32,000 bases of DNA from assembly GCA_963675915.1 (NCBI GenBank), contig OY780959.1:120001-152000 (forward strand), in the 5' to 3' direction. The notes below the pieces were generated by a model, which saw only the letters and a list, made by a program, of their open reading frames with translations, searched no databases and was not told the origin of the DNA. Made by a program: the position numbers and the translations under genes. This document shows, piece after piece, positions 3,746 through 26,822 of this stretch (positions within the stretch are counted from its first letter, which is position 1; every line of letters begins with the position of its first letter). This DNA is from Coprobacillaceae bacterium (GTDB lineage: Bacteria; Bacillota_I; Bacilli_A; Erysipelotrichales; Coprobacillaceae).

Positions 3746-3770
3746 AAAAGTCACGTGAGTGACTTTTTTG
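3746..3770 (+). terminator. intrinsic terminator
   Basis: AAAAGTCAC-gtga-GTGACTTTT followed by a T run. Confidence 0.8.
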
Positions 3771-3845
3771 TATTATATAAGTAGGGGATATGTTGTTGTT
3801 CCTGGTTTTATAATACGTTTATATAGAATATGATATAATGGGTTT

Positions 3846-4071
3846 GTAGAGATGTTCAAACCATGAGATTCCTTTTAGGAAAGCTCGCAAAAACTGCTGT
3901 AGCTTTGACTACTGTTGGCAGTCACCTCTACACTATATGAACATATGAAGCCGGGGCAATTAATTACTCTCGGCTTTGTTTTTTTGTAGGCATACAAATA
4001 ATAGAGTGAAGGAAAGCAAGGATATGTGGCTTTTGGAACTTCGAGTTCGTAAATAAAAATATCCTGCTTCC
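3846..4071 (+). ncRNA. candidate structured ncRNA in the IS110 left arm (possible bridge RNA)
   Basis: Extended -10 TGaTATAAT at 3831-3839. Hairpins follow: GGTTTG/CAAACC (3841-3863), GAGATTCC/GGAAAGCTC, ACTGC...GCAGT, and AAGCCG/CGGCTT plus a T7 run (3948-3985). A 13-bp stem (4011-4025 with 4059-4071) encloses a symmetric 10/10-nt internal loop and a distal hairpin GAACT-tcg-AGTTC (4036-4048). Function is inferred, not shown. Confidence 0.3.
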
Positions 4072-4203
4072 TTTTGTGACTAAGAATCCGTTTAAATCTA
4101 AGTAGGACGACATATAGTGTTGAACCTGTATCCATAACAAAAATTGGTCAGTCATGAAAAAGGGAGTTTGCTTTCACTAAAATACAGAAAGAAGGAATGA
4201 AGA

Positions 4204-5412
4204 ATGCAAGGCCCAGTAATTGCCATTGACGTTTCGAAAGGTTCCAGTCACATGCAGGGATACTCTGAATTCAATGTCAAATTGCACAAAGTCAAAGTAA
4301 TCACCCATAACAAGTCCGGTTTTCAGGAGATTATCGCACTCAAAAATGAGTTGGCACAGAAAACCGGAAAAGAAGTATCAGTAGTATTCGAAGCTACCGG
4401 AGTATATCATCGGCCTCTGGAAAAGTTTCTTACAGACAATGGAATCAGGCATTATGTTATCAATCCATTGATTGCTGCAAAAGTCAGAAAAAGTTCGAGT
4501 CTTAGAAGTCCTAAAACCGACAAGTTAGACCCCAAAATAATTGCCAAAGTATATTACACCAAACAGCTACGAATTAACCACAAACGAAGCGACAAATACC
4601 ATCAAATGCGAGAATTGTCGAGATATTATGAAGATTTGATGAATCATATCCGAAAAGACAAGGTGACTTTTAGAGCGTATCTCGATATGGTTTTTCCTGG
4701 TTATGGCGAATTATTTGATGATCTGTACGCTGACGGTTCTTTGACAATTTTAGAGAAATATCCCCATCCGGAGTTGCTTGCAAAAAAGCATACTAAGACA
4801 GTCTCCAAATATGTCCAAAATCATACTTGTCATCGAGAAAAGGTCAGTAATTATTTGGCTATAAAAGTGATTGAATTTGCCAAAACTGTTTATTCGTGTT
4901 GCGAAAAAGATGATGTGGAGGTTGAGCTGCTTAGAAGACAACTTATGATCTTGAAGAACCATAAAAAAGAGGCTGACGACATATTGGATAGGCTAATCTA
5001 TTTGGCCCAAGATATCCCGAACTTTGCAATCATCAAAAGCATCCCGGGGATTGGGGATAACTTAGCCAGTAGAATTATAGCCGAACTTGGAGATATTGAT
5101 AAATATGACAGATATCAACAAATTGTAGCTGCCGCCGGAATTGATCCTAGAGTCTATCAATCAGGGAAGAAAGATGGTCACCACATGAAAATATCCAAAA
5201 AAGGTAATAAAAGATTGCGGACTCTTCTATACTTGGCGGTGAGAGGGTCTATCAGATGGAAGGACAATAAAATCAAAGATTATTACAAAAAGAAAAGGCA
5301 GCAATCGAATCCGATGAATTCGAAAGCCGCCAAGATTGCATGTGCTACTAAATTGATTAGAATAATCTATAGCATGTGCAACACCGGTACATTGTACCAA
5401 TATGATTTATAA
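4204..5412 (+). CDS. IS110-family transposase/recombinase (DEDD N-terminal domain plus Transposase_20 C-terminal domain)
   Basis: N-terminus VIAIDVSKGS...VVFEATGVYH; C-terminus IKSIPGIGDNLASRIIAELGDIDKY...AAGIDPRVYQSGKK...ISKKGNKRLRTLLYLA. RBS GAAGGAA. Confidence 0.9.
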   Translation: MQGPVIAIDVSKGSSHMQGYSEFNVKLHKVKVITHNKSGFQEIIALKNELAQKTGKEVSVVFEATGVYHRPLEKFLTDNGIRHYVINPLIAAKVRKSSSLRSPKTDKLDPKIIAKVYYTKQLRINHKRSDKYHQMRELSRYYEDLMNHIRKDKVTFRAYLDMVFPGYGELFDDLYADGSLTILEKYPHPELLAKKHTKTVSKYVQNHTCHREKVSNYLAIKVIEFAKTVYSCCEKDDVEVELLRRQLMILKNHKKEADDILDRLIYLAQDIPNFAIIKSIPGIGDNLASRIIAELGDIDKYDRYQQIVAAAGIDPRVYQSGKKDGHHMKISKKGNKRLRTLLYLAVRGSIRWKDNKIKDYYKKKRQQSNPMNSKAAKIACATKLIRIIYSMCNTGTLYQYDL

Positions 5413-5735
5413 ACTTATTATACAACGACTCGCTGTGAAAAAAAAGCCATTTTCATGGCCTTTTCGTCGTTGTTTCAAATGATATGGAAATCTTATTAGT
5501 AAAAGACTTGATTTCTATTACCTAATTTTATTTGCTTCATTATTGGCATTTTTTCAAGGCTGAGAGTTGCCAAGATAAATCAGAAATTTTAATTGTGAAG
5601 CGGTGTTTTAAAGAAAATGATTGACTCTATGACTGATATAGAGATTATGATTGGATAAACTGGAAATGGTTTAAATTCAGATGATCTTTAATCAGAAGGG
5701 TTACTGTGATTTAAGATCTTACAAAAAGGAGAAAA

Positions 5736-7033: not shown

Positions 7034-8242
7034 ATGGAAAAATTTGAATTTGAAGATATGGAATTTTCAGAAGGAACAAGACTTTTATATGAAGGACATC
7101 ACGTCAAGGGAATGGAGCTTGCTCCTGAAGCATTTCCATTGTTTATGACAAGCGCTTTTACGATGGGAAATCTCGAAGACGTCGAAAAGGCTTATGAACA
7201 AAAACGCTACACCTATATCCGGACTCGCAATCCCAACCGCAAAGCATTGGCGGATGTTTTGACGTATCTGGAAAAAGGAAGGGATACCCTGATTTTCAGT
7301 TCCGGAATGGGGGCAATCACAACAACATTCTTTGCCTTGTTGAAACCGGGTGACCACTTCTTATGCAACGAGAATATTTATGGGGAAACCTATGACGCGA
7401 TTACGACATTACTGGTTAACTATGGAGTTGAAAGTGACTTTGTTCCTTTTGATGATCTGGGTGCGGTTGAGCAGGCAATCAGGCCCAATACCAAGATGGT
7501 CTACACCGAAGTCGCCAGCAATCCGACTGACAAACTCTGCGATATCGAAGCAATTGCCAAACTGGCACATGAAGCCAAAGCCTTGTTCATGGTTGACAAT
7601 ACCTTCACAACGCCTTTTTGTATCAAGCCTCTTGAACTGGGAGCGGATATCGTCATCAACAGTCTGACCAAGTTTTTGAACGGCCATTCCGATGCCTTGG
7701 CCGGTTCGATCACCCTTAATGATATGAGCATCTACGAACAGGTCCATAATGTCAGAATGCTGACAGGAACAAGTGGGTGTCCGATGGCTTCTTGGATGAT
7801 TTACCGCGGTATTCATACGGCAGATCTTAGAATCAAGCGCCAATGTGAAAATGCTGCAAAACTGGCCCTGGCTTTAGCTAAGAACCCCAATGTCATCAAG
7901 GTCAATCACCCAGCCGTCGCGACCCATCCTCAACACGAGTTAGGCAAGAAAATGTTCAAAAGGCCCGAATTGATTACCGGGATGCTCAGTTTTGAAATGC
8001 CGGGCGACAAAAATAAGATCTCTCAGTTCATGGATCTCCTTCATCTGCCTCATTATGCCCCGACCCTTGGAGGAATCAGGACCACGCTTTCTTATCCACT
8101 GCTTTCTTCACATATGCATGTCCCTGAGGAAGACTTGAAGAAAATGGATATTTCAGCCGGTCTGATGCGGGTATCGGTGGGAATTGAAGATATCGACGAT
8201 TTGATTAAGGATTTTGAAAATGCGTTGAAAGTATTTGATTGA
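7034..8242 (+). CDS. Cys/Met-metabolism PLP-dependent enzyme, paralog 2
   Basis: Same architecture: SSGMGAIT, DNTFTTP, NSLTKFLNGHSD and YIRTRNPNR. GGAG lies 7 nt upstream of the ATG. Confidence 0.8.
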   Translation: MEKFEFEDMEFSEGTRLLYEGHHVKGMELAPEAFPLFMTSAFTMGNLEDVEKAYEQKRYTYIRTRNPNRKALADVLTYLEKGRDTLIFSSGMGAITTTFFALLKPGDHFLCNENIYGETYDAITTLLVNYGVESDFVPFDDLGAVEQAIRPNTKMVYTEVASNPTDKLCDIEAIAKLAHEAKALFMVDNTFTTPFCIKPLELGADIVINSLTKFLNGHSDALAGSITLNDMSIYEQVHNVRMLTGTSGCPMASWMIYRGIHTADLRIKRQCENAAKLALALAKNPNVIKVNHPAVATHPQHELGKKMFKRPELITGMLSFEMPGDKNKISQFMDLLHLPHYAPTLGGIRTTLSYPLLSSHMHVPEEDLKKMDISAGLMRVSVGIEDIDDLIKDFENALKVFD

Positions 8243-8304
8243 TTTTTTCGCTCACCAAGCCTATCAGATGGCTGGAGCAAAAAAACCATTATTTTGAGAA
8301 ACTC

Positions 8305-8347
8305 AAACAAACCCAAAGCTGATTTTGCCAGAGCTTTGGGTTTGTTT
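8305..8347. terminator. bidirectional terminator between convergent genes
   Basis: 16-bp perfect stem AAACAAACCCAAAGCT/AGCTTTGGGTTTGTTT with an 11-nt loop. A T-rich tract follows on the plus strand. Confidence 0.8.
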
Positions 8348-8381
8348 TGTTTATTTTTTCAATTGATGATGGAATCGTCAG

Positions 8382-10271
8382 CTATTTGGGCACTGATTTT
8401 TCGACTTCATCGAATTTTGCTAATAAGGTATTGAAATCCTTTTTATTGATGATTTCACGGACTTTGTCGTGGTCAAGCACCAATTTTGAAATCACATCGA
8501 AAAAACGGAGTAGGTAACGGTTCAATATTTGATCGTTCAAAATGGTTATAATCAATGAAACCCTATGGTCCCCCCATTTGATCGGGCGGTTAAGGATGCA
8601 AACCGAGACTATTGTTTCCTTATAACTGGTATGGACCGGATTCAAAATTGCCGTCGAATTGGCGAAAAAAGAATCAGCAGCTTTTTCTCTGTTTTTGATT
8701 TCCGGCGCGAGGCGGGGCTGGATTTTCTTTTGGTCCACAAATTGGTCAATTATAAAGTCGATTACATCATCCTTGCTTTTTAAATTGAGATTCGGATAGA
8801 AGAATTGAAGACTAAAGGCCGGTTTATAAAATTTTCTAAAAGGGGTCCGGAGAATTTTTTTGATCTCATCAATTTGGTAGTCGGTTAAATCCAGTGAAAT
8901 TTCCATGGCCGGCTTTTTAGCAATTTCGAGGGGCGACGTTGTGAAGATATAGTCGATATTGGAAAGTTTGGCTGGAAGATTATGGGAATCAGTAACTTCG
9001 ATGTTCTTAATATGGCGGGTAAAGGTCTGTTCAAATTGGAATTTTAGAAGTTGTTGGGACCCAATTCCGTAATCACAGACAAGCATGATGTTTTTTTCGT
9101 TGGAAAATGTCGTCCTTTTTTTGATTGCTGTATCCAGGAAGATGGCAATATAGCCAATTTCGTCCTGGGTGATTTCCTTTTTATAGAATGAGCTGAGATA
9201 CTGACAGGCAATTTTTGCGAGCATGAACGCAAACGTATGATTCTGTTTGATTTCCAGTAGTATCGGATTATGTAACTGGATGTCGTTTTCAATCCTGATT
9301 CGCATTGGACCGAGATGTCCTGCCAAATGGTTGCGAAGTTCGATGTCATAATCGTGATTGTCGAAAAGATTGACTTGGTAATAGCGACTTATTTCCTTAA
9401 GCAGTCTGACGATGATATTTTGGCTTTCAAAGTCGATATCTTTGAAAAGGTGAGGCGATTCAAGCGGAAAACTTAGCCGACTTTTAATGAAAATCAAAGC
9501 AAAATTCAACTCGTTGCTGCAAAGTTCCTTAGTTTCTGGCAAAAGCAGACTGAATATTTCGCGGATAAAGCCCATTTCCTGGCTGGCCGGCGAATATGTC
9601 GTTTCTGTTATCATGTTACCGTGATTGATTCTTGTGGATGCGACGATAAAAAATGAGGTGATTTCATCAAGAGCGTAGCCCAGGCACCGATAATTGTGTC
9701 GGTTCAGTAACTCATTGATTTGGCTGAGCAGAACCAAAAACTGTTCTAAGTTGTCATGGTGGATCAGTTCTCTTTCTAAAAGACATTTTCTGATATTGAT
9801 TTCGCTTCCCCTTAATCTAAGCCCGTAATTCGGGGTTTGGGAAATATCGAGATTAAACCGGGAAAAATAGCGCCGGACTTTTTTCAAATCTCCCGTGAGC
9901 GAATTTCGGCTTACGAAAAGTTGCTCGGCCAGGTCATCAAGAAGAATATAATCGTTGCTTGAGATTAACAATCCAATCAGATATTCAACCCTTTCACCAG
10001 GTTCGACCGGTTTCATTGAATCCAACATCTTCTTTTTTTCCCGGTTGTAGAAATCATGATAGCGCTGATAATCATGAATGTCGATTTTGATGCCGTAGTG
10101 GGGGCGGATAATCAGGGTGGCGCCATTTTCACTTAGGATCGGTTTAAGCTGTTTGAGGACCGTTCTTACGGTCCGGTCGGATATTCCAAGCGCCAAAGCC
10201 AGAGCCGCCGAGGTAATATATTCGGTTGTCGAAAGGTTTTTTAGTATTTCAATATGTTTGTTCTTTTTCAT
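8382..10271 (-). CDS. PRD-domain transcriptional regulator of the LicR/MtlR type (HTH, PRD, EIIB-like and EIIA-like domains)
   Basis: N-terminal HTH (ALALGISDRTVRTVLKQL), a PRD-like segment (LRNHLAGHLGPMRIRIE...EIGYIAIFLD), an EIIB-like Cys (MLVCDYGIGSQ) and a C-terminal EIIA-like region. Start placed at ATG 10271, with GGAG 6 nt upstream, rather than 10334. Confidence 0.8.
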   Translation of the reverse strand: MKKNKHIEILKNLSTTEYITSAALALALGISDRTVRTVLKQLKPILSENGATLIIRPHYGIKIDIHDYQRYHDFYNREKKKMLDSMKPVEPGERVEYLIGLLISSNDYILLDDLAEQLFVSRNSLTGDLKKVRRYFSRFNLDISQTPNYGLRLRGSEINIRKCLLERELIHHDNLEQFLVLLSQINELLNRHNYRCLGYALDEITSFFIVASTRINHGNMITETTYSPASQEMGFIREIFSLLLPETKELCSNELNFALIFIKSRLSFPLESPHLFKDIDFESQNIIVRLLKEISRYYQVNLFDNHDYDIELRNHLAGHLGPMRIRIENDIQLHNPILLEIKQNHTFAFMLAKIACQYLSSFYKKEITQDEIGYIAIFLDTAIKKRTTFSNEKNIMLVCDYGIGSQQLLKFQFEQTFTRHIKNIEVTDSHNLPAKLSNIDYIFTTSPLEIAKKPAMEISLDLTDYQIDEIKKILRTPFRKFYKPAFSLQFFYPNLNLKSKDDVIDFIIDQFVDQKKIQPRLAPEIKNREKAADSFFANSTAILNPVHTSYKETIVSVCILNRPIKWGDHRVSLIITILNDQILNRYLLRFFDVISKLVLDHDKVREIINKKDFNTLLAKFDEVEKSVPK

Positions 10272-10440
10272 ATTCATCTCCGCTTTGATTATATCATTTA
10301 TCACTTCCAGAATGAATAACAACTTTTTCCACAATGTATCCGGAAAAAAATATGGTGGTAGAATTTTGCAATAATGATATATTTAACTCAGGCAAAGCCT
10401 AACTTCGTTGGCCATGAAGCAAATTAGAAGGAGAGAACAA

Positions 10441-13166
<2,726 letters not shown>

Positions 13167-13273
13167 TTAAACTATTCATATTATGATCCAACAGTAACTA
13201 ATAGTGAGGCGTCAACAATAGCCAATTTGTCTTAAGCGCACACCAACTCGATTGACGTACCTATTTTAATATT

Positions 13274-13300
13274 AAGAGCCTGATTTCAGGCTCTTTTTTC
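13274..13300 (+). terminator. intrinsic terminator
   Basis: AAGAGCCTG-attt-CAGGCTCTT followed by a T run. Confidence 0.85.
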
Positions 13301-13435
13301 TTGCATGAAAAATTATCTTCTTGGTTAACTTGGAACATTCTGGCAAGCGCTATCATTTTTTTGCCGCTGACATTTAATTGCTCTGGAAAATGTGATATAC
13401 TTTTGCTTAACAGGGTTAAAAAAGGGGGAAAGAAG

Positions 13436-14478: not shown

Positions 14479-15765
14479 ATGAAAAACATGAAAATTAAAA
14501 GTATTTTAGCAGGAGCGGTTATCGTAGTCGGAGCAATTGCTTTGGTTGGATGTAGCAGTGGTTCCCAGGATTCGGTCGAACCGGGAGTTCAAGTGAAAGC
14601 CGATAGTGATTCACCTACCGGTTACACTGCTGTTTTCACTTATGAAAACGCCGACGCGGATTCGGTTGGACTGACTGGAAACTTCAGCTTCTATCCATCA
14701 GATCAGCCGGTCGGATTCACCACTTTCCCATTGGCGGATGGGTACGTAGTTGAAGATGTCGTTCTGGCGACTGATTTAACAAGGGAACTGGCTCAAAGTG
14801 ATATCACCAAGACTACATATCAAATCGGAACTTTCCAAAGTGCCTCTCTACCAATGAGTGAAATTGAGGATACCGATTACTGGACTATCGAAGTGCCATT
14901 GCTGCCAGGAGCTTATTTCTACAAATATGATTATATGATCGGGGAAGATATGACCAGTGTCATGGATCCAACCAATTTGCCGCTGGAAAATGACGGTTCA
15001 GATTGTCAAAACAGTATTGTCTATGTGGGCGACAAAGATAATGCCACTAAGGATCTTGAATACCTTTATGCCCGGGATGATGATCAGACCGGAACGGTTG
15101 AATTTGTCGAATATTCTGCTGTTGATGGAACTACCCAACCACTAGGTATTTATTTGCCATATCAGTATGACAGTTCGAAGGAATACAAAACAATTTACGC
15201 ATCACATGGTACCGGAGGGAACGAAACCGAGTGGTTTACAATCGGTAGTGCTGCCAATATCATGGATAACCTGATTGGAGAGGGATTGACTGATGAAGCG
15301 ATTGTAGTTGCGATGGATAATACATATTTCAATATTCCCGGGGCAGAATGGGATCGCGAAGCTATTTCGGATAATATCGTAAACTATGTTCTTCCTTATG
15401 TTGAAGCAAATTACAGTGTTTCTGCCAATCCGGATGACCGCTCAATTTGCGGGTTGTCTCAAGGTGGGGCTGAAATGGTTAATATCATGGAAAAATATTC
15501 AGCAGAATTCGCCAATTTCGGGATTTTCTCTTCTGGGGATTTTGACTACAGTTATCTTGATACTGCCGATTTGGCTGAACCAAACCTTTATATTGGAGCG
15601 GGAAGCTATGATTTCTGTCAGCTTACCAGCCAGGAATTAACCAAGAAACTTGACGAACTGGGAATGGATTACACTTGGGTACTGAAAGACGGGGCTCATG
15701 ACTGGGGTACTTGGAGTGCACTTTACTCGGAATTCATCAAAGATTTTGTCGGAGTTGCAGATTAG
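14479..15765 (+). CDS. lipoprotein esterase (alpha/beta hydrolase, putative-esterase family) with an N-terminal E-set/CBM48-like domain
   Basis: Signal peptide with lipobox LVGC. The serine motif GLSQGG sits in an esterase-like context (YASHGTGGNETEW...ICGLSQGG). RBS AAGGGAGG. Confidence 0.7.
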   Translation: MKNMKIKSILAGAVIVVGAIALVGCSSGSQDSVEPGVQVKADSDSPTGYTAVFTYENADADSVGLTGNFSFYPSDQPVGFTTFPLADGYVVEDVVLATDLTRELAQSDITKTTYQIGTFQSASLPMSEIEDTDYWTIEVPLLPGAYFYKYDYMIGEDMTSVMDPTNLPLENDGSDCQNSIVYVGDKDNATKDLEYLYARDDDQTGTVEFVEYSAVDGTTQPLGIYLPYQYDSSKEYKTIYASHGTGGNETEWFTIGSAANIMDNLIGEGLTDEAIVVAMDNTYFNIPGAEWDREAISDNIVNYVLPYVEANYSVSANPDDRSICGLSQGGAEMVNIMEKYSAEFANFGIFSSGDFDYSYLDTADLAEPNLYIGAGSYDFCQLTSQELTKKLDELGMDYTWVLKDGAHDWGTWSALYSEFIKDFVGVAD

Positions 15766-15788
15766 ATGTCTACAGCGTAATATTCACT

Positions 15789-15817
15789 AAAAGAGCCTTG
15801 CTGTGCAAGGTTCTTTT
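15789..15817 (+). terminator. intrinsic terminator of the esterase gene; it immediately abuts the intron 5' end
   Basis: AAAAGAGCCTTGC-tgt-GCAAGGTTCTTTT: a 10-13 bp stem with one G.T pair. The T run ends at 15817. Confidence 0.85.
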
Positions 15818-16461
15818 GTGCGACAGGCAGTCGCTTAGATGTCGTGTATACAGGTACATGGCATTTTCCTTTTATAAATGAGTTCCTGTAATAGTTAGCT
15901 ATCAATACAGTAAATATCATGGAATAGGGAAACCCCGTAGGTACAAATCCTACCCCGTGCGCACTGGTGCTATTCGGGAAATCTAGTCTAGGGCATAATC
16001 GTGAGATTGTGTTTGAAGGAGACGCAGTAGTCGAGAGACCTGTAGATGAGTTGGCAGGCCGAAACGAAAAGTGAATCACATGTTGCGGCAGTGGAGAATG
16101 TGACGACGTTGCGAAAGGTGCGGAAGTCTATTCACGACATATTCTAAGAACCAGTCGAATATGCCGGCACTCCATTGTGAAGGTGATTGGCATGTCAACA
16201 AGGGCGTAGTTGATGACCCTGTGAGACCTCTTCATCCACCGAAAGGATAGCCATCTATAAGAGTCATTCGAAGTGATGGTTATATGAAGAGGAGTCAGAC
16301 AATCTCATAGTAGTGAAGTAGTCATGCGACCAAACGTTTGGCGAAGCAAAGGGGATTGACCTTTTACAATTCTTACTTTGTTTAATCGTAATGGTAAGAA
16401 TGACGGTACTTAGGTACAAACGAATTCAAAGAACGATAAATAGAAAGAGAGGTTTGAAATT

Positions 16462-17886
16462 ATGAATGAACCGTTGAAATTGAAGTGGCATTCTCTGTAT
16501 GGACAAATACTCCAGGACAGGAAAATACTAGAAGCATGGAAGCAGGTAAAAGCAAATCATGGAAGTGGAGGGATTGATGGGGTAACCATTGAACGCTTCA
16601 TGGAAAATGAACAAGACAATTTGGACAAGCTACTGGAAGAACTGAGATTAAAGGAATATAGACCAATCCCTGTAAGGCGAGTATATATCCCTAAGAAAAA
16701 CGGAAAGAGAAGACCATTGGGAATACCAATAGTCAAAGATCGGATAGTTCAGCAGGTGCTAACCAATATCCTAACCCCAAAATATGAGGCCGGTATATTC
16801 CATCACTGGTCAGTTGGCTACCGCCCGAATCGTGGTGTCGACAGTGCCATGCAGATTATCATCAAGAACATCGAGGAAGGAAGAAACTGGATATACGATT
16901 GTGATATCAAAGGGTTCTTCGATAACATTCCCCATAAAAAGTTGATGAAGGTATTGAATAAATGCATCGCTGATGGGACTGTTCTTGATTTGATTTGGTC
17001 ATGGCTCAAAGCGGGATACATGGAAGACGGTAAACATATGCAAAGCAAAAGTGGAACACCGCAAGGTGGCGTTATTTCACCTCTACTTGCAAACATCTAC
17101 CTGAACGAACTGGATTGGAAGTTGCACGAGGCAAAGATTCACTTCGTGCGTTATGCCGATGATTTTCTCTTGTTTGCGAAAACAGAAGAAGAAATTGAGC
17201 GGGCAGGAAAGATAGCCAGAGAAGTGATTCAATCATTAGGATTGGAAATGGCTATGGACAAAACCAAAGTGGTGGACTTTAAAAATGATGATTTTACATT
17301 TCTTGGATTTGACTTCAAACACTGGAGGAAAAACAAGAAAGGTGAAGACTACTATTTCATAGTTCCCACCGCCAAGTCGCTCAAAGACTTCAAAAAGAAA
17401 ATCAAGGATAAGACGCAAAGAAAGTGGACATTTTCTCAGGATAAATGGGTAAGCATGCTTAACCCGATTATAGTCGGAAAAGTCAATTATTACCTGAATG
17501 TCTACAAAGCACTGGAAATATTCAAGAAGCACAATTACAAAACCCATTGCGACATAAATCTAATGGGAAGGGAACTAAATACAATTGACAAGTATATTCG
17601 CCAAAGGCTGAGAATGTGCATGATGCATAAACATCCGACAATCAGGAAAGCGTTTGGAATGACGGTTAAATGGAATATAGCATTCTTTGCGATGATTGGT
17701 TTGAAACCGGCATACTGGCACTATTTCAATACCATGTATGGATATCCAATTGAAATATATGTTCAAAGACAACAGGGTATCAACAAAGAAGTAACGAAAA
17801 ACAGAGTGGAACAGTGCAGGAAAGCCGGAATCAAGTATTACACGAAAGAAAGAAACAAGAAAATAGCCTACTCTTTTAGCAAGTAG
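16462..17886 (+). CDS. group II intron reverse transcriptase/maturase (no recognisable HNH endonuclease domain)
   Basis: RT blocks are present: RRVYIPKKNGKRRPLGIP, DIKGFFDNIPH, GTPQGGVISPLLANIYL and VRYADDFLLF. A maturase (X) region follows. The C-terminus lacks Cys/His clusters. Confidence 0.92.
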   Translation: MNEPLKLKWHSLYGQILQDRKILEAWKQVKANHGSGGIDGVTIERFMENEQDNLDKLLEELRLKEYRPIPVRRVYIPKKNGKRRPLGIPIVKDRIVQQVLTNILTPKYEAGIFHHWSVGYRPNRGVDSAMQIIIKNIEEGRNWIYDCDIKGFFDNIPHKKLMKVLNKCIADGTVLDLIWSWLKAGYMEDGKHMQSKSGTPQGGVISPLLANIYLNELDWKLHEAKIHFVRYADDFLLFAKTEEEIERAGKIAREVIQSLGLEMAMDKTKVVDFKNDDFTFLGFDFKHWRKNKKGEDYYFIVPTAKSLKDFKKKIKDKTQRKWTFSQDKWVSMLNPIIVGKVNYYLNVYKALEIFKKHNYKTHCDINLMGRELNTIDKYIRQRLRMCMMHKHPTIRKAFGMTVKWNIAFFAMIGLKPAYWHYFNTMYGYPIEIYVQRQQGINKEVTKNRVEQCRKAGIKYYTKERNKKIAYSFSK

Positions 17887-17924
17887 ACTATAATCATTCA
17901 TAAAATCAGATTTAGTAAATTGGT

Positions 17925-17957
17925 AAGCCGTATGCGTTAATAGCGCATGTGCGGTTT
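17925..17957 (+). ncRNA. group II intron domain V
   Basis: AAGCCGTATGCG-ttaatag-CGCATGTGCGGTTT: the AGC triad and the two-part helix with a 3'-strand bulge match the conserved DV pattern. Confidence 0.8.
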
Positions 17958-17970
17958 GATAAGGGGCTAG

Positions 17971-17975
17971 CTTAG
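17971..17975. repeat. target-site duplication CTTAG (left copy)
   Basis: Identical pentamer directly abutting both transposon termini. Confidence 0.75.
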
Positions 17976-17999
17976 TGTAGCTAGTCAATTTATTTGATG
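17976..17999 (+). repeat. terminal inverted repeat, end distal to the transposase promoter side
   Basis: TGTAGCTAGTCAATTTATTTGATG compared with the reverse complement of 21265-21288, TGTAGCTAGCCATTTTATTTGATG: 22 of 24 nt identical. Confidence 0.8.
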
Positions 18000-18004
18000 G
18001 ATGA

Positions 18005-18058
18005 TTCTTCAAATTATATGGGCCTTCTTTTGGTCCTTTTTTGATGTTCTTCAAATTA
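18005..18058 (+). repeat. subterminal direct repeats TTCTTCAAATTA (18005-16 and 18047-58), each preceded by TTTGATG
   Basis: Exact 12-mers 42 bp apart. The same composite motif, TTTGATG-5nt-TTCTTCAAATT, occurs in inverted orientation at 21193-21215 near the other end. Confidence 0.7.
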
Positions 18059-18121
18059 ATTGAATGGGATATTCAGTTTATTTGAAATGATGTTTTAGAG
18101 GAGAAAGAAAATAATCGCCTG

Positions 18122-18430
18122 TTAGACGATTATCCCTGACTCGTTTAATTTGTAGATGGCTTGTGATATGGCTTCGCTGCTGATTGGATCTATCTCGCGC
18201 AATAGAGCTGACTTGTTCCAAAATTTGTCTTTGAAATATGATAGTTCCAGTCCCAGCTTCATCAACGGGATGCAAATCCAGTTTCCTTTGGCTGATTTAC
18301 CTACTATCACTTCGATTTCATTGCCGTCATATCTTAGCTGGAATTCACACTTATCTGGGTTTTGCGAGACTATTACTATCTCGTTGGCCCATGTTTTTTC
18401 ATCATAGTTGCAGAAGTATTCGATTATCAA
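18122..18430 (-). CDS. hypothetical 102-aa protein, last gene of the transposon
   Basis: The TTG start overlaps the ATPase TGA stop (ATTTGA), with AGAGG 7 nt upstream. No motif recognised. Confidence 0.55.
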   Translation of the reverse strand: MIIEYFCNYDEKTWANEIVIVSQNPDKCEFQLRYDGNEIEVIVGKSAKGNWICIPLMKLGLELSYFKDKFWNKSALLREIDPISSEAISQAIYKLNESGIIV

Positions 18431-19230
18431 ATTACTACCTCTTCGATTGTTTCTAGGATTAAATCGGAATCAATTACTTCGATTTTTCTGATTGCTCCGA
18501 TAAACATTGCCCGGTCGCATATCCGATCAATAACCCGACAGGTGCCGTTGGATGCATTGATGATTGCTTCAATGGCATTGTCGTTGAACACTTCTTGAAT
18601 TGTTTTTCCGCCTTGGAGCTTGTCTTTGATATAAGCAAGACTTTCAGTTTTGTTTAACGGCTCCAGTTTGTAATTGATAATCATTCGCTGACGCAGTGGT
18701 TCATGAGCGGTCAATTTAAGGTTCCTGGTTATTGTCGGCAATCCGACCATCAAGACTACCGCATGATCCTTGGAATCCATATCAAAATTGAAGATCATCT
18801 TCAAATCATTAAGAATGGCGTTATTCATGTAATTACATTCATCAAAGATAAACACCGGGGTAATCCTTTTTTCGTAAATCAACTGGTTTATGGCTGATTG
18901 GATCTCCCTGAACAGATCATTCTTTCGATACCGAGGAGTCAAATCCAGCGACTCAGCCAGTTGCATATAGAATTCCTTGACTGTAAGGGTCGACATTGAC
19001 AAATAAATTATCTTGTAAGCTGATTTGGGGAGTGTTTTGATATAGTTCCTGATCATGGTTGTTTTGCCATGTCCAGGTTCACCGACTATTAGTCCGAAAC
19101 CTTTGATTTCAAAAAGGCTGTTAAGGCGTACTTTCAATTCCTGGTATTCACTTGTTTCAATAAATAAATTCTTTGAGTTCTTGATAAACGGATTGAATTC
19201 CAATCCGTATCTGGTCCAATATTTTTCCAT
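18427..19230 (-). CDS. AAA+ ATPase, ExeA/TniB-like transposition helper
   Basis: Walker A GEPGHGKTT and Walker B VFIFDECNY. Overall ExeA-like layout (YGLEFNPF... at the N-terminus; GTCRVIDRICDRA near the C-terminus). ATG 19230 is preferred because GGAGGAG lies 7 nt upstream. It overlaps the transposase stop as TAATG. Confidence 0.85.
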   Translation of the reverse strand: MEKYWTRYGLEFNPFIKNSKNLFIETSEYQELKVRLNSLFEIKGFGLIVGEPGHGKTTMIRNYIKTLPKSAYKIIYLSMSTLTVKEFYMQLAESLDLTPRYRKNDLFREIQSAINQLIYEKRITPVFIFDECNYMNNAILNDLKMIFNFDMDSKDHAVVLMVGLPTITRNLKLTAHEPLRQRMIINYKLEPLNKTESLAYIKDKLQGGKTIQEVFNDNAIEAIINASNGTCRVIDRICDRAMFIGAIRKIEVIDSDLILETIEEVVI

Positions 19231-20477
19231 TAATCTTCTCCTCCGCATAATTTTGGCTGCACTCGTTTTACTTTTGAATTAGCGTTTTTATCAAGTAGGT
19301 GAATCCGTTCCAGTTCGCCGGTATTCTTGTTAACTATATAGACGTTTTCCAAGTCCGGAGTATATCGGAACATATGCCTTTCACCAGAATAGATATAATC
19401 AATCTCGTATTCCCGATTATCTATTTTGATTACCGAATCAGTACTGACAGACCGCTCTACTTCGAACAGGAAAGTATTGTCGATAAAGTCATCATCAAGC
19501 CTTTTGATCAGATTGCTTTCCTGAAAAAAACGTTGATGAGGTGTCAATCCATTCAAAGACGAATGCACCTTGTTGTTGTAATCATTGATGAACTGGCTTA
19601 AATCCTGCTTCAAACCTTCTAGATTGTTTGTGTAATCTTTTATGTTTATTTGGGCGAAGAACTGATCTTTAATCGTCCGAAACACCCGCTCAATTTTTGA
19701 TTTTCCTTCCGGCGAGTACGGTTTGCAGTAGCTGATGGTTGAATTAATCCTTGCTGCAATCATCTTGATCTGGTGATTTCGATAATTGGAGCCGTTGTCA
19801 AACCTGAACATCTCAGGAATTCCGTATTTGGTGACCGCACTTTTCATAGTATCCATCAAATTGACTGTGTTGTCATTCAAATACAAATCAAGATGGACGA
19901 TCATCCTTGAAGCATCATCAATCAGGGCAATCATATAAGTTCGGTTTTTCTTGCCATTAATGGTTATGTAAGGACCGACCGAACTGTCACCAGCCCAGTT
20001 CATATTGATATGGGGCACTTCGTAGCGGCGCATGTCTTTCTTGTTTGATAGACGCAATTCCGACTTTATCTGATTGACACATCGATTAACGGTTGATAGC
20101 GAAACATCAGTTTTCTTGATGATTCCCTTTTCAATCAACTTGCCGTAAATTACAGTTGCCGGCAATCTAGGATAGGTTGTCTTATAATATTTGATTGTTT
20201 CAACGATGTCATCATCCAGTCTTCTTGACTTGCCACAATCACTTCGCTTTTGAGGAATCAATCCATCGAAGCCTTTCTCTTCGTAAGCAGCAATCCACCT
20301 GGAGATGGTACTGCTTGAGACAGTGAAATCACGGTTGTCGAAACTCTTATAGACTTTCTTGGTAGCTTCCGTAATCGCCTGATTCTTAGACCATGCAGCA
20401 TCGTAATTTCCGGTAATGATGTCATGAATGATCCGATGGCGCATCAACGCTACGTATTCTTGTTCTTTTTTATCCAT
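19230..20477 (-). CDS. DDE (rve-type) transposase with N-terminal HTH and Mu-transposase-like C-terminal domain
   Basis: D..D..E candidates are WAGDSS, RFDNGSNYRN and SPEGKSKIERVFRT. The C-terminus VIKIDNREYEIDY...FRYTPDLENVYIV resembles the Mu/TnsB/TniA C-terminal beta-barrel. GGAGG lies 7 nt upstream. Confidence 0.88.
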   Translation of the reverse strand: MDKKEQEYVALMRHRIIHDIITGNYDAAWSKNQAITEATKKVYKSFDNRDFTVSSSTISRWIAAYEEKGFDGLIPQKRSDCGKSRRLDDDIVETIKYYKTTYPRLPATVIYGKLIEKGIIKKTDVSLSTVNRCVNQIKSELRLSNKKDMRRYEVPHINMNWAGDSSVGPYITINGKKNRTYMIALIDDASRMIVHLDLYLNDNTVNLMDTMKSAVTKYGIPEMFRFDNGSNYRNHQIKMIAARINSTISYCKPYSPEGKSKIERVFRTIKDQFFAQINIKDYTNNLEGLKQDLSQFINDYNNKVHSSLNGLTPHQRFFQESNLIKRLDDDFIDNTFLFEVERSVSTDSVIKIDNREYEIDYIYSGERHMFRYTPDLENVYIVNKNTGELERIHLLDKNANSKVKRVQPKLCGGED

Positions 20478-20525
20478 ATAATACCTCCGTCACCCACTAT
20501 ATACTAATAGAATCGATTATTTAAC

Positions 20526-21194
20526 TCATCCTATGTGGTTGATGGTATACAGGATATTTATGGTATTTCTACATTGCATGAACTGCATCAAATAATTTGA
20601 AAAACAACTTTCAACAAGTTGGTTAATATCATTTGATTCAATTCTCAACGACATCAAACGTTGCTGCCAAACATTGATATACCTGCTCACAACATTATAA
20701 ATTTCACACTCAGACATATAGGGATTTCGATCAAGAATGGCTTTTAATAGTTTCTGATTATTTTTATGTATGGAAATCTCAACTTGAACAGCCAACGGGA
20801 TACTTGAATATGGAACCAAACATGAAAGAAGAATTGCGTGGGTTCTGCCACAATCCTTACATCTTAGCCGCATTATTCTCAAATTAAAAAAGCCAAAAGG
20901 CAGTTTCACCCTTCGGTTATAATAACCATGAATTATGAAATTGCCCTGGCAGTCACCAGCGCAACTCAAGGAAAAACGATTGATATTGGAAACCAATTCA
21001 TTATAATAGGCCTGGAGTTTGGCCCGCGAATCAATCTTCATCAATTTATTATTGATTTTTACTCCGTGATACGTTATCATATTCTTGTCTATATGGCAAA
21101 TGAGAGAAACTGCTTGGTGGTGGCGTCTCTCATTTTTTCTTTCTCTAGATTTATTACCAATAAAATAACAAAGCAAAAGGTCAATCTCAAGCAA
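20526..21194 (-). CDS. zinc-ribbon protein (CX3C...CX2C), possibly DUF6431-like; first gene of the transposon
   Basis: CAGDCQGNFIIHGYYNRRV...LRCKDCGRTHAILLSCLVPYSSIP. The start is uncertain: the TTG at 21194 lies inside an end repeat and has no RBS, and ATG 21080 is an alternative. The family name is from memory only. Confidence 0.5.
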   Translation of the reverse strand: MLEIDLLLCYFIGNKSRERKNERRHHQAVSLICHIDKNMITYHGVKINNKLMKIDSRAKLQAYYNELVSNINRFSLSCAGDCQGNFIIHGYYNRRVKLPFGFFNLRIMRLRCKDCGRTHAILLSCLVPYSSIPLAVQVEISIHKNNQKLLKAILDRNPYMSECEIYNVVSRYINVWQQRLMSLRIESNDINQLVESCFSNYLMQFMQCRNTINILYTINHIG

Positions 21195-21264
21195 TTTGAA
21201 GAAAAATTCATCAAATTATTTGGAATTGACCTTTATTTATTATGACTAGATTATGGTTAGATGG

Positions 21265-21288
21265 CATCAAATAAAATGGCTAGCTACA
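21265..21288 (-). repeat. terminal inverted repeat, end proximal to the transposon genes
   Basis: See 17976-17999. Confidence 0.8.
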
Positions 21289-21293
21289 CTTAG
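21289..21293. repeat. target-site duplication CTTAG (right copy)
   Basis: Identical pentamer directly abutting the ACA terminus. Confidence 0.75.
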
Positions 21294-21331
21294 AAATAAG
21301 TTAGCCTACTTTATTCCTTTGAGTCGTAATA

Positions 21332-26720: not shown

Positions 26721-26760
26721 AAAAAAGAAATCTCACTTGTTTTTTGGTGAGATTCCTTTT
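26721..26760 (-). terminator. intrinsic terminator ending the sulfur operon (hairpin is symmetric, with T runs on both strands)
   Basis: GGAATCTCAC-caaaaaacaa-GTGAGATTTC followed by T6, read on the minus strand. Confidence 0.75.
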
Positions 26761-26822
26761 GAATTTAATCTTGATGATAGCCATTCCAAAAATCAGTAAT
26801 AATTATTGAAACTTAACCATTG

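Follow-up and report, generated by a model that had tools for sequence, protein, structure and literature searches.

How did the branch-point domain of a bacterial group II intron come to have its two strands 3.3 kb apart, and in which order were the parts of the locus assembled? These questions are raised by a 32,000-nucleotide stretch of contig OY780959.1 (positions 120,001 to 152,000 of the forward strand, assembly GCA_963675915.1) from a Coprobacillaceae bacterium, the whole of which is called here the window. The data presented below indicate that three successive events very probably met at one intergenic site, where an intrinsic terminator was joined by a class-C-type (IIC) group II intron and then by a 3.3-kb DNA transposon that entered domain VI (DVI) of the intron. 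An earlier note, made from the letters of the window alone, had already proposed this order together with precise ends, and these are compared with our results below.

The intron extends from 15818 to 21314 (5,497 bp), and it measures 2,179 bp after removal of the transposon and of one copy of the pentamer CTTAG. Its parts, and the site that it occupies, are as follows.

15793..15817 (hairpin 15793-15813), plus strand: intrinsic-terminator hairpin of the esterase gene followed by TTTT, which is the 5' exon and the intron target motif
15818..17975, plus strand: 5' segment of the intron, 2,158 nt, with the GTGCGAC start, domains I-IV with the open reading frame (ORF), domain V (DV), and the 5' half of DVI
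16462..17886, plus strand: intron-encoded reverse transcriptase (RT)/maturase, 474 aa, intact, with a YADD motif (RVT_1 and GIIM)
17924..17958, plus strand: DV, 15 pairs with a 2-nt bulge (RF00029 alignment, fold, and pair counts)
17961..17975, plus strand: 5' strand of DVI and the first loop base, G17975 (fold and homolog alignment)
21294..21314, plus strand: 3' part of DVI, i.e. the remaining loop bases, the 3' strand, the bulged A 21308, and the tail ending in AT

The presence of a group II intron, as the earlier note had claimed, was confirmed by an RT/maturase that scored 393.6 bits against TIGR04416 (cutoff 300), by the match of DV in RF00029, and by the finding of homologous introns. 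In Pfam the RT/maturase matched RVT_1 (4e-42) and GIIM (1e-10), and no endonuclease domain and no HNH/En match were detected in that database. Its closest solved relative was the group II intron RT/maturase 7uim (4e-68), followed by 5hhj, 5hhl, and the GsI-IIC RT 6ar1; 7uim and 5hhj/5hhl presumably come from IIC introns. The RTs of two homologous introns (L001 and L002) were equal in length to that of the window. At the 5' end, GTGCGAC at 15818 agrees with the conserved GUGYG of group II introns, and the Rfam D1-D4 models gave only weak matches in this intron. A hairpin followed by TTTT directly precedes the intron in the window and in L001, L002, and L006, that is, in all four full copies examined, and insertion behind intrinsic terminators is a documented class C behavior (PMC4424553, PMC7306698). 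Taken together, the RT type, the ends, the target site, and the solved relatives suggest a class-C-type, terminator-targeting intron. It resembles the IIC introns B.h.I1, the Eubacterium rectale intron (PDB 7uim), and GsI-IIC in its GTGCG 5' end, its DV, its DVI with a bulged A, its intron-encoded protein combining RT and maturase without an endonuclease domain, and its target immediately after a terminator hairpin and T-run, but it differs from them in that the DVI of the window copy is interrupted.

The empty site was observed in a sister genome (L026), which was found via the protein clusters of the neighboring genes and which shares the esterase and old-yellow-enzyme (OYE) genes with the window. 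The flanks of the window are 95.9% and 98.3% identical to it at the nucleotide level (BLAST). The esterase-to-OYE spacing is only 166 bp in the sister genome (...AAAAGAGCCTTGCTGTGTGCAAGGTTCTTTTT CCTTTGAGTCGTAATATTGG...), and the window counterpart reads GGTTCTTTT, then GTGCGAC...CTACTTTAT, and then TCCTTTGAGTCG. In the sister genome the same hairpin is followed by TTTTT-CCTTTGAG with no insertion, so that the empty site, ...GGTTCTTTTT-CCTTTGAGTCG, contains neither intron nor transposon. The BLAST alignment breaks at 15817/15818, and identity is back at the intron 3' end; the resuming segment begins at 21309, 6 nt inside the intron, which is a chance match to the T-run of the 5' exon, and the 3' exon proper begins with T at 21315. 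Because the terminator of the sister genome runs uninterrupted into the downstream sequence, the intron ends could be fixed to the base, at 15818 and 21314, and the 3' end in AT at 21314 put forward in the earlier note agrees with an exon that resumes after that position. By this comparison the intron is an insertion relative to the sister genome, and the terminator, found there without intron or transposon, is the ancestral state, older than the intron, which bears out the earlier view that the terminator came first.

To the base-level ends, the domain structure adds the position of the break. When 17975 was joined to 21294, the sequence folded into DV and a DVI hairpin (-32.1 kcal/mol, z = -5.2), none of 200 shuffles being as good, which is the outcome of a folding check that had been proposed beforehand. 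DV was aligned by RF00029 with posterior probabilities near 1, and it shows two compensatory pairs among 5 sequences; the domain had been placed at 17925-17957, and its pairs in fact span 17924-17958. In DVI, the helix and the bulged A that had been described hold, but the proposed 9-bp helix with a 6-nt loop does not, because A17974 pairs with U21297 and gives an upper helix of 10 bp capped by a GNRA tetraloop (GAAA in the window and GUGA in two homologs). The bulged branch-point A, at 21308, is the seventh base counted from the 3' end at 21314, and both the fold and the homolog alignment uphold its earlier assignment at 7 nt from the 3' splice site.

Copies of the intron that lack the transposon provide the corresponding uninterrupted state. 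With the intron RT as the query, one genome per species was scanned and six relatives were found; the 3' region is uninterrupted in four of them, namely L001 (87% RT identity, a Coprobacillaceae metagenome-assembled genome (MAG)), L006 (86%), and L003 and L005 (68-69%). All four read ...GATAAGGGGCTAGCYTRG-NNNN-RRGTTAGCCTACTTTMT, and positions 17918-17975 of the window continued by 21294 onward are collinear with them, gap-free from DV to the exon. The homologs contain one CYTRG only, where the window has its left CTTAG. On the alignment of the window and the 4 homologs, all 70 cells of the 14 DVI pairs were paired, two pairs showed compensatory changes (U-A to C-G and A-U to G-C), and a shift of the 3' partner by at most 3 columns lowered the pairing to 23-64%. 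L006 and L005 scored 41.8 and 41.7 bits in RF00029 DV-DVI with the 3' end at CCUACUUUAU (gathering score 40), and it is only because its DVI is split that the whole-model score of the window stays under gathering. Removal of 17976-21293 hence restores DVI, as predicted, with gap-free homologs and two covarying pairs. Homologs with a 3' end near 17993 had been named as the finding that would speak against this reconstruction; the four uninterrupted homologs end as 21294-21314 instead. Compared with other intron copies, the transposon is inserted sequence.

The transposon and the features associated with it are the following.

17976..21288, minus strand: transposon, 3,313 bp, 37.7% G+C, genes on the minus strand (terminal inverted repeats (TIRs) and the ends of relatives)
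17976..17999, plus strand: TIR of the DUF6618-side end, TGTAGCTAGTCAATTTATTTGATG, which starts TGTAGCTAG
21265..21288, minus strand: TIR of the DUF6431-side end, TGTAGCTAGCCATTTTATTTGATG on the minus strand, which contains GGCTAGCT at 21278-21285
17971..17975, no strand: left copy of the 5-bp target-site duplication CTTAG
21289..21293, no strand: right copy of the target-site duplication CTTAG
18020..18042 (hairpin 18020-18036), plus strand, i.e. that of the intron: terminator-like hairpin followed by TTTTTT, 45 nt inside the transposon (from a consensus scan only)
20526..21080, minus strand: DUF6431 protein, 184 aa from the conserved MIT start (Pfam PF20020, 1e-07)
19230..20477, minus strand: DDE (rve) transposase, 415 aa, with N-terminal helix-turn-helix domains (Pfam rve and HTH_32)
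18427..19230, minus strand: AAA+ ATPase, 267 aa, Walker A GEPGHGKTT, its start overlapping the transposase stop codon (AAA_22, 4e-20)
18122..18430, minus strand: DUF6618 protein, 102 aa (Pfam PF20323, 3e-07)

The TIRs are identical at 22 of 24 positions with TGT...ACA termini, and both their limits (17976 and 21288) and the CTTAG copies that abut them were confirmed at the exact coordinates given in the earlier note. A degenerate 24-mer built from the two ends, which matches its own sources by construction, has no further occurrence in the window, and the expectation from 100 shuffles is 0. Next to the left end there are subterminal repeats (TTCTTCAAATTA at 18005 and 18047), and a repeated ATTTATTTGA motif was found as well. 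At the DUF6431-side end, positions 21176-21234 contain a 28-nt imperfect hairpin (82% complementary) with which copies of the TTCATCAAATTA motif overlap. Several spurious microRNA-family matches in a permissive Rfam search are explained by this hairpin, which may be a transposase-binding or regulatory site.

The four ORFs of the transposon, like that of the RT, are intact, and the roles of their products, inferred from sequence, would be those of a transposition module. The transposase matched phrog_310 "transposase" (1e-51, PHROGs) and is 27% identical (E 9e-22) to p480 of Tn552, taken from the S. aureus plasmid pSJH901; its residues D163, D227, and E263, with D-35-E spacing, align with the p480 motifs as the predicted catalytic triad. 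Its sequence matches in PDB were TnsB (7e-06) and the transposase of IS5376 (8e-05), which is an IS21-family IstA. The ATPase matched phrog_296 "DNA transposition protein" (1.7e-25), gave a weak TniB match (8e-4, Pfam), and is 26% identical to p271 of Tn552 (E 6e-12, 263 aligned positions, residues 23-255 of 267); both PHROGs families belong to transposable phages. In the DUF6431 protein, conserved Cys and His residues (CxC...H and CxxC...TH in the alignment) point to a zinc ribbon with a helical domain behind it. Its AlphaFold2 (AF2) model is confident (pLDDT 81) and showed no significant fold match in PDB; as a guess, the protein could be a DNA-binding accessory.

The element shares with Tn552, Mu A/B, Tn7 TnsB/TnsC, and Tn5053 TniA/TniB an rve-fold DDE transposase followed by the overlapping gene of a ~270-aa AAA+ ATPase, and with the Tn552 module it also shares TG...CA termini, subterminal repeats, and a short target duplication (5 bp in the window). 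Mu, Tn7, and Tn5053 also make 5-bp target duplications. Nevertheless, the identity to Tn552 is only 26-27%, and the window element has no resolvase or res site and no cargo, has two extra small genes (DUF6431 upstream and DUF6618 downstream), and is merely 3.3 kb, which makes it more insertion-sequence-like; unlike in the Tn552/Mu module, no Mu-transposase C-terminal domain was detected. Since no match to a resolvase, a recombinase, or a phage structural family was obtained for any of the four ORFs in Pfam, NCBIfam, and PHROGs, the element should not be filed as Tn552-family proper, of which it shares only the core. It is similar to IS21 (IstA/IstB) in the two-gene layout of transposase and ATPase, and to IS481 in that IS481 is the best NCBIfam match of its transposase and some relatives are annotated by NCBI as "IS481 family transposase". 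Membership of either family was rejected: the transposase scored 171.1 bits against the IS481 model NF033577 (cutoff 224) and 63.7 bits against the IS21 model NF033546 (cutoff 160), both below the curated cutoffs; the ATPase had no IstB_IS21 match in Pfam, where AAA_22/TniB-type models were matched instead; and the element has four ORFs, whereas IS481 elements have a single one.

The window element is a member of an abundant, uncharacterized cassette family in Bacillota. At E<=1e-10 the transposase has 2,214 relatives, many of which lie on contigs of ~3.0-3.4 kb, in line with what a repeat that breaks assemblies would produce. The same cassette occurs in many unrelated genomic contexts, and the gene order is kept among relatives; DUF6618 is kept in the closest ones (86-96% protein identity) and missing from the type found in Clostridium butyricum. 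The right end of a 78%-identical relative (L010) aligns base for base to 17976, and another contig (L013) begins exactly at the TGT terminus. C. butyricum GCA_013149575 contains at least 6 copies of a 3,042-bp three-gene version with the ends TATAGAATAGCA.../...TGCTATTCAATA, and the examined transposases of this type are ~52% identical to that of the window. On Geobacillus plasmids the cassette is annotated as "IS481 family transposase", "AAA family ATPase", and "DUF6431". In Clostridium sp. JS66, 15 copies of a DUF6431/DDE integrase/AAA ATPase cassette, which mediate a deletion, are reported (bioRxiv 10.64898/2026.08.16.744336). That cassette is like the C. butyricum one in being a multicopy substrate of homologous recombination with a three-gene organization, but the preprint treats it as a repeat without defining its ends, duplications, or family, and the window element adds DUF6618. 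As far as could be found, the ends, the duplication length, and the absence of a resolvase are apparently defined here for the first time for this family (DUF6431, Tn552-like DDE transposase, AAA+ ATPase, with or without DUF6618), which reaches many copies in some genomes and drives rearrangements. Exact-protein look-ups returned no identical RT, transposase, ATPase, DUF6431, or OYE protein on record; scans of metagenome and viral collections with the transposase gave remote matches or none; and nucleotide searches of plasmids and phages turned up neither a copy of the element nor a close copy of the intron. A separate observation was made in C. butyricum, where two inverted 3,042-bp copies (L016/L017, JABFUH010000001.1, at 0.42 and 1.07 Mb) have exchanged their 6-bp flanks, ATTGAC and CGTTAT, and therefore point to a ~650-kb chromosomal inversion by homologous recombination between copies.

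The history that we consider very probable would have run as follows. At first the esterase gene had only its intrinsic terminator, made of a hairpin and the run TTTTT; the class-C-type (IIC) intron, with its endonuclease-less RT/maturase, would then have inserted after the fourth T of the run; and the transposon would finally have entered the DVI apex, splitting the GAAA tetraloop after its G. In this last step the DDE transposase, presumably acting with its AAA+ ATPase partner by analogy with Tn552, Mu, and Tn7, would make 5-bp staggered cuts at the apex, whose repair would duplicate CTTAG. The order of intron and then transposon at this site is the parsimonious reading. Both insertions are recent, as judged from the intactness of all ORFs, the repeats, and the duplication, and the host pays no price, since the whole nest sits behind a terminator and ahead of the promoter region of the next gene. 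As in other nested elements with introns, such as RmInt1 in ISRm2011-2 and twintrons, one selfish element offers another a harmless landing site; the difference is that here it is a DNA transposon that has entered an intron, and that the break lies in the branch-point domain. The locus is thus an ordinary nesting of known kinds of elements that leaves the known workings of introns and transposons unchanged, the transposon family being its only under-explored component. Because its three historical states (empty terminator, uninterrupted intron, and interrupted intron) can be recovered from sequence, it can serve as an annotation benchmark.

Several points weigh against this history or against the loss of intron function that would follow from it. 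The intron may already have carried the transposon when it retrohomed to this terminator. When other copies of the element were checked, the same terminal bases were found in relatives, but the 5-bp duplication is not general. L010, the only close relative with both flanks, has no duplication (ACAGG at 740-744 vs GATCT at 4064-4068); its two flanks carry different genes, and the mismatch may come from a chimeric metagenome (Logan) contig or from recombination between copies. The distant C. butyricum relatives make clean 6-bp duplications, not 5-bp ones. In metagenomic contigs of the P0056 group the flanks could not be reliably paired, and one cross-contig match, CTTTAT, gave a hint of 6 bp. 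A second copy of the exact element with a different 5-bp flank was not found in the searched data, which do not include the window's own genome. As for the intron, a mini-construct of the composite is predicted to pair the TIRs and the near-palindromic CTTAG (CTNAG) into a 29-bp extension of DVI and to keep the basal DVI helix with its bulged A, and group II introns can splice by hydrolysis, without branching or DVI.

We weighed other explanations of the locus against this background. That the intron is intact and ends near 17998, with the hairpin 17965-17986 and the tail ...AATTTATTTGAT as its DVI and the 3.3-kb element lying downstream of it, can practically be dismissed, even though RF00029 aligns 17923-17998 as a complete DV-DVI (E 1.9e-4) and the GGCTAGC/GCTAGTC hairpin folds at -11.9 kcal/mol. 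With this end the score is 35.9 bits, under the gathering score of 40, and L006/L005 reach 41.7-41.8 with the other 3' end. Moreover, four homologs go on with ...AAATAAGTTAGCCTACTTTAT-like sequence and not with TGTAGCTAG, the 3' exon of the sister genome resumes after 21314 and not at 17999, and 17976-17999 recurs inverted at 21265-21288. An end near 17998 is accordingly refuted by the homolog alignment, the sister genome, and the Rfam scores of the homologs. The 3' strand of the hairpin appears to be the left inverted repeat of the transposon mimicking DVI, and this is a pitfall for covariance models, as the left TIR imitates DVI enough to give a near-threshold Rfam match with a wrong 3' end. 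It is equally hard to credit that the 3.3-kb segment belongs natively to the intron, for instance as an unusual DVI insertion or a twintron-like inner intron. The segment does occupy a terminal loop, and group II introns tolerate extra sequence in such loops, but it is bounded by terminal inverted repeats and a 5-bp direct duplication, its genes, with a DDE transposase and an ATPase among their products, run antisense to the intron, the same cassette exists outside introns in many genomes, and no group II or other RNA family match was found within it in Rfam. The inverted repeats, the duplication, the antisense genes, and the copies outside introns refute this explanation.

If a transposon splits DVI, is the intron still functional? 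The composite might still work, the pairing of the TIRs extending DVI in the RNA so that the 5.5-kb intron splices and maybe retrohomed with the transposon as cargo. In its favor, the mini-construct formed DV, the basal DVI helix, and the 29-bp extension of target duplication and TIR at -65.1 kcal/mol (z = -8.2), and the RT/maturase ORF is intact. We nonetheless regard this as very unlikely: at 17965-17986 and 18020-18036 of the intron strand the consensus scan placed hairpins that resemble terminators and have T-runs, the helix strands are separated by 3.3 kb of antisense coding sequence, no second composite copy was seen in data that exclude the window's own genome, and class C introns, being behind terminators, are poorly transcribed (PMC7306698). 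It is plausible that the intron no longer splices by branching or retrohomes in cis, i.e. that it is dead, given that the DVI strands are 3.3 kb apart and that the intervening antisense transposon brings terminator-like hairpins on the intron strand. Another alternative is that the site was chosen rather than hit at random, the transposase being drawn by an end-like sequence or by the hairpin or palindromic DNA of DV-DVI. GGCTAGCT is common to the DVI 5' strand (17965-17972) and the right TIR (21278-21285), and the L002 copy of the intron was also invaded, in DV, by an unrelated tyrosine-recombinase element 20 nt upstream of the corresponding site. An 8-mer match as good as this one was obtained in 2% of shuffled flanks and in 4.5% of window 30-mers, so it hints only weakly at end-like target choice. 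These p-values are weak and post hoc, ~15 flanks of related insertions, too few for a test, share no motif or consistent palindrome, and no GCTAGC core is present in the ends of the closest relative (TGTTACTAGG / TGTAGTTCTTC), all of which leaves site choice unlikely. GGCTAGCT of the right TIR can pair with AGTTAGCC beside the branch site (-10.2 kcal/mol). There is only a very slim chance that the composite is a functional chimera, either through re-zipping of DVI by the TIRs and CTTAG or through a cryptic branch site and 3' splice site supplied by the DVI mimic of the left repeat at 17965-17998, or that GCTAGC-like sequences or hairpin apices are targeted. If the chimera were real, the intron could still splice and, on retrohoming, bring the transposon or part of one of its ends behind further terminators; if such recognition were real, the DV-DVI region of IIC introns would be a preferred landing pad.

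L002, a second copy of the homologous intron (Coprobacillaceae MAG OY776328.1), is interrupted at L002 positions 7495-12626 by an unrelated ~5.1-kb element. This lies in the 3' strand of DV, at the equivalent of 17955/17956 and 20 nt upstream of the transposon site of the window, and it has ~58-bp perfect inverted repeats and three tandem tyrosine-recombinase genes, the middle one of which is split by an IS3-type element. Three levels of nesting exist there, since the IS3-type element splits a gene of an element that is itself inside an intron.

Other mobile-element differences were observed between the window and the sister genome. The latter contains, at 15371-17257, a different group II intron (464-aa RT, start GTGTGCC) directly after another terminator hairpin, and the window shows the empty site of this second intron at ~26758-26763 (...GAGATTCCTTTTGAATTTAATC). 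As each has one intron that the other lacks, the two near-identical sequences are reciprocal in intron presence and absence. At 3770-5525 the window has a 1.76-kb insertion missing from the sister genome, which encodes a 402-aa IS110-family transposase (DEDD_Tnp_IS110 and Transposase_20) and is another recent mobile-element difference. Finally, positions 8469-13304 of the window hold a block with a PRD/Mga-type regulator, a phosphotransferase system (PTS) EIIC, and a family-1 glycosidase in place of ~340 bp of the sister genome, which is a variable sugar-utilization island.

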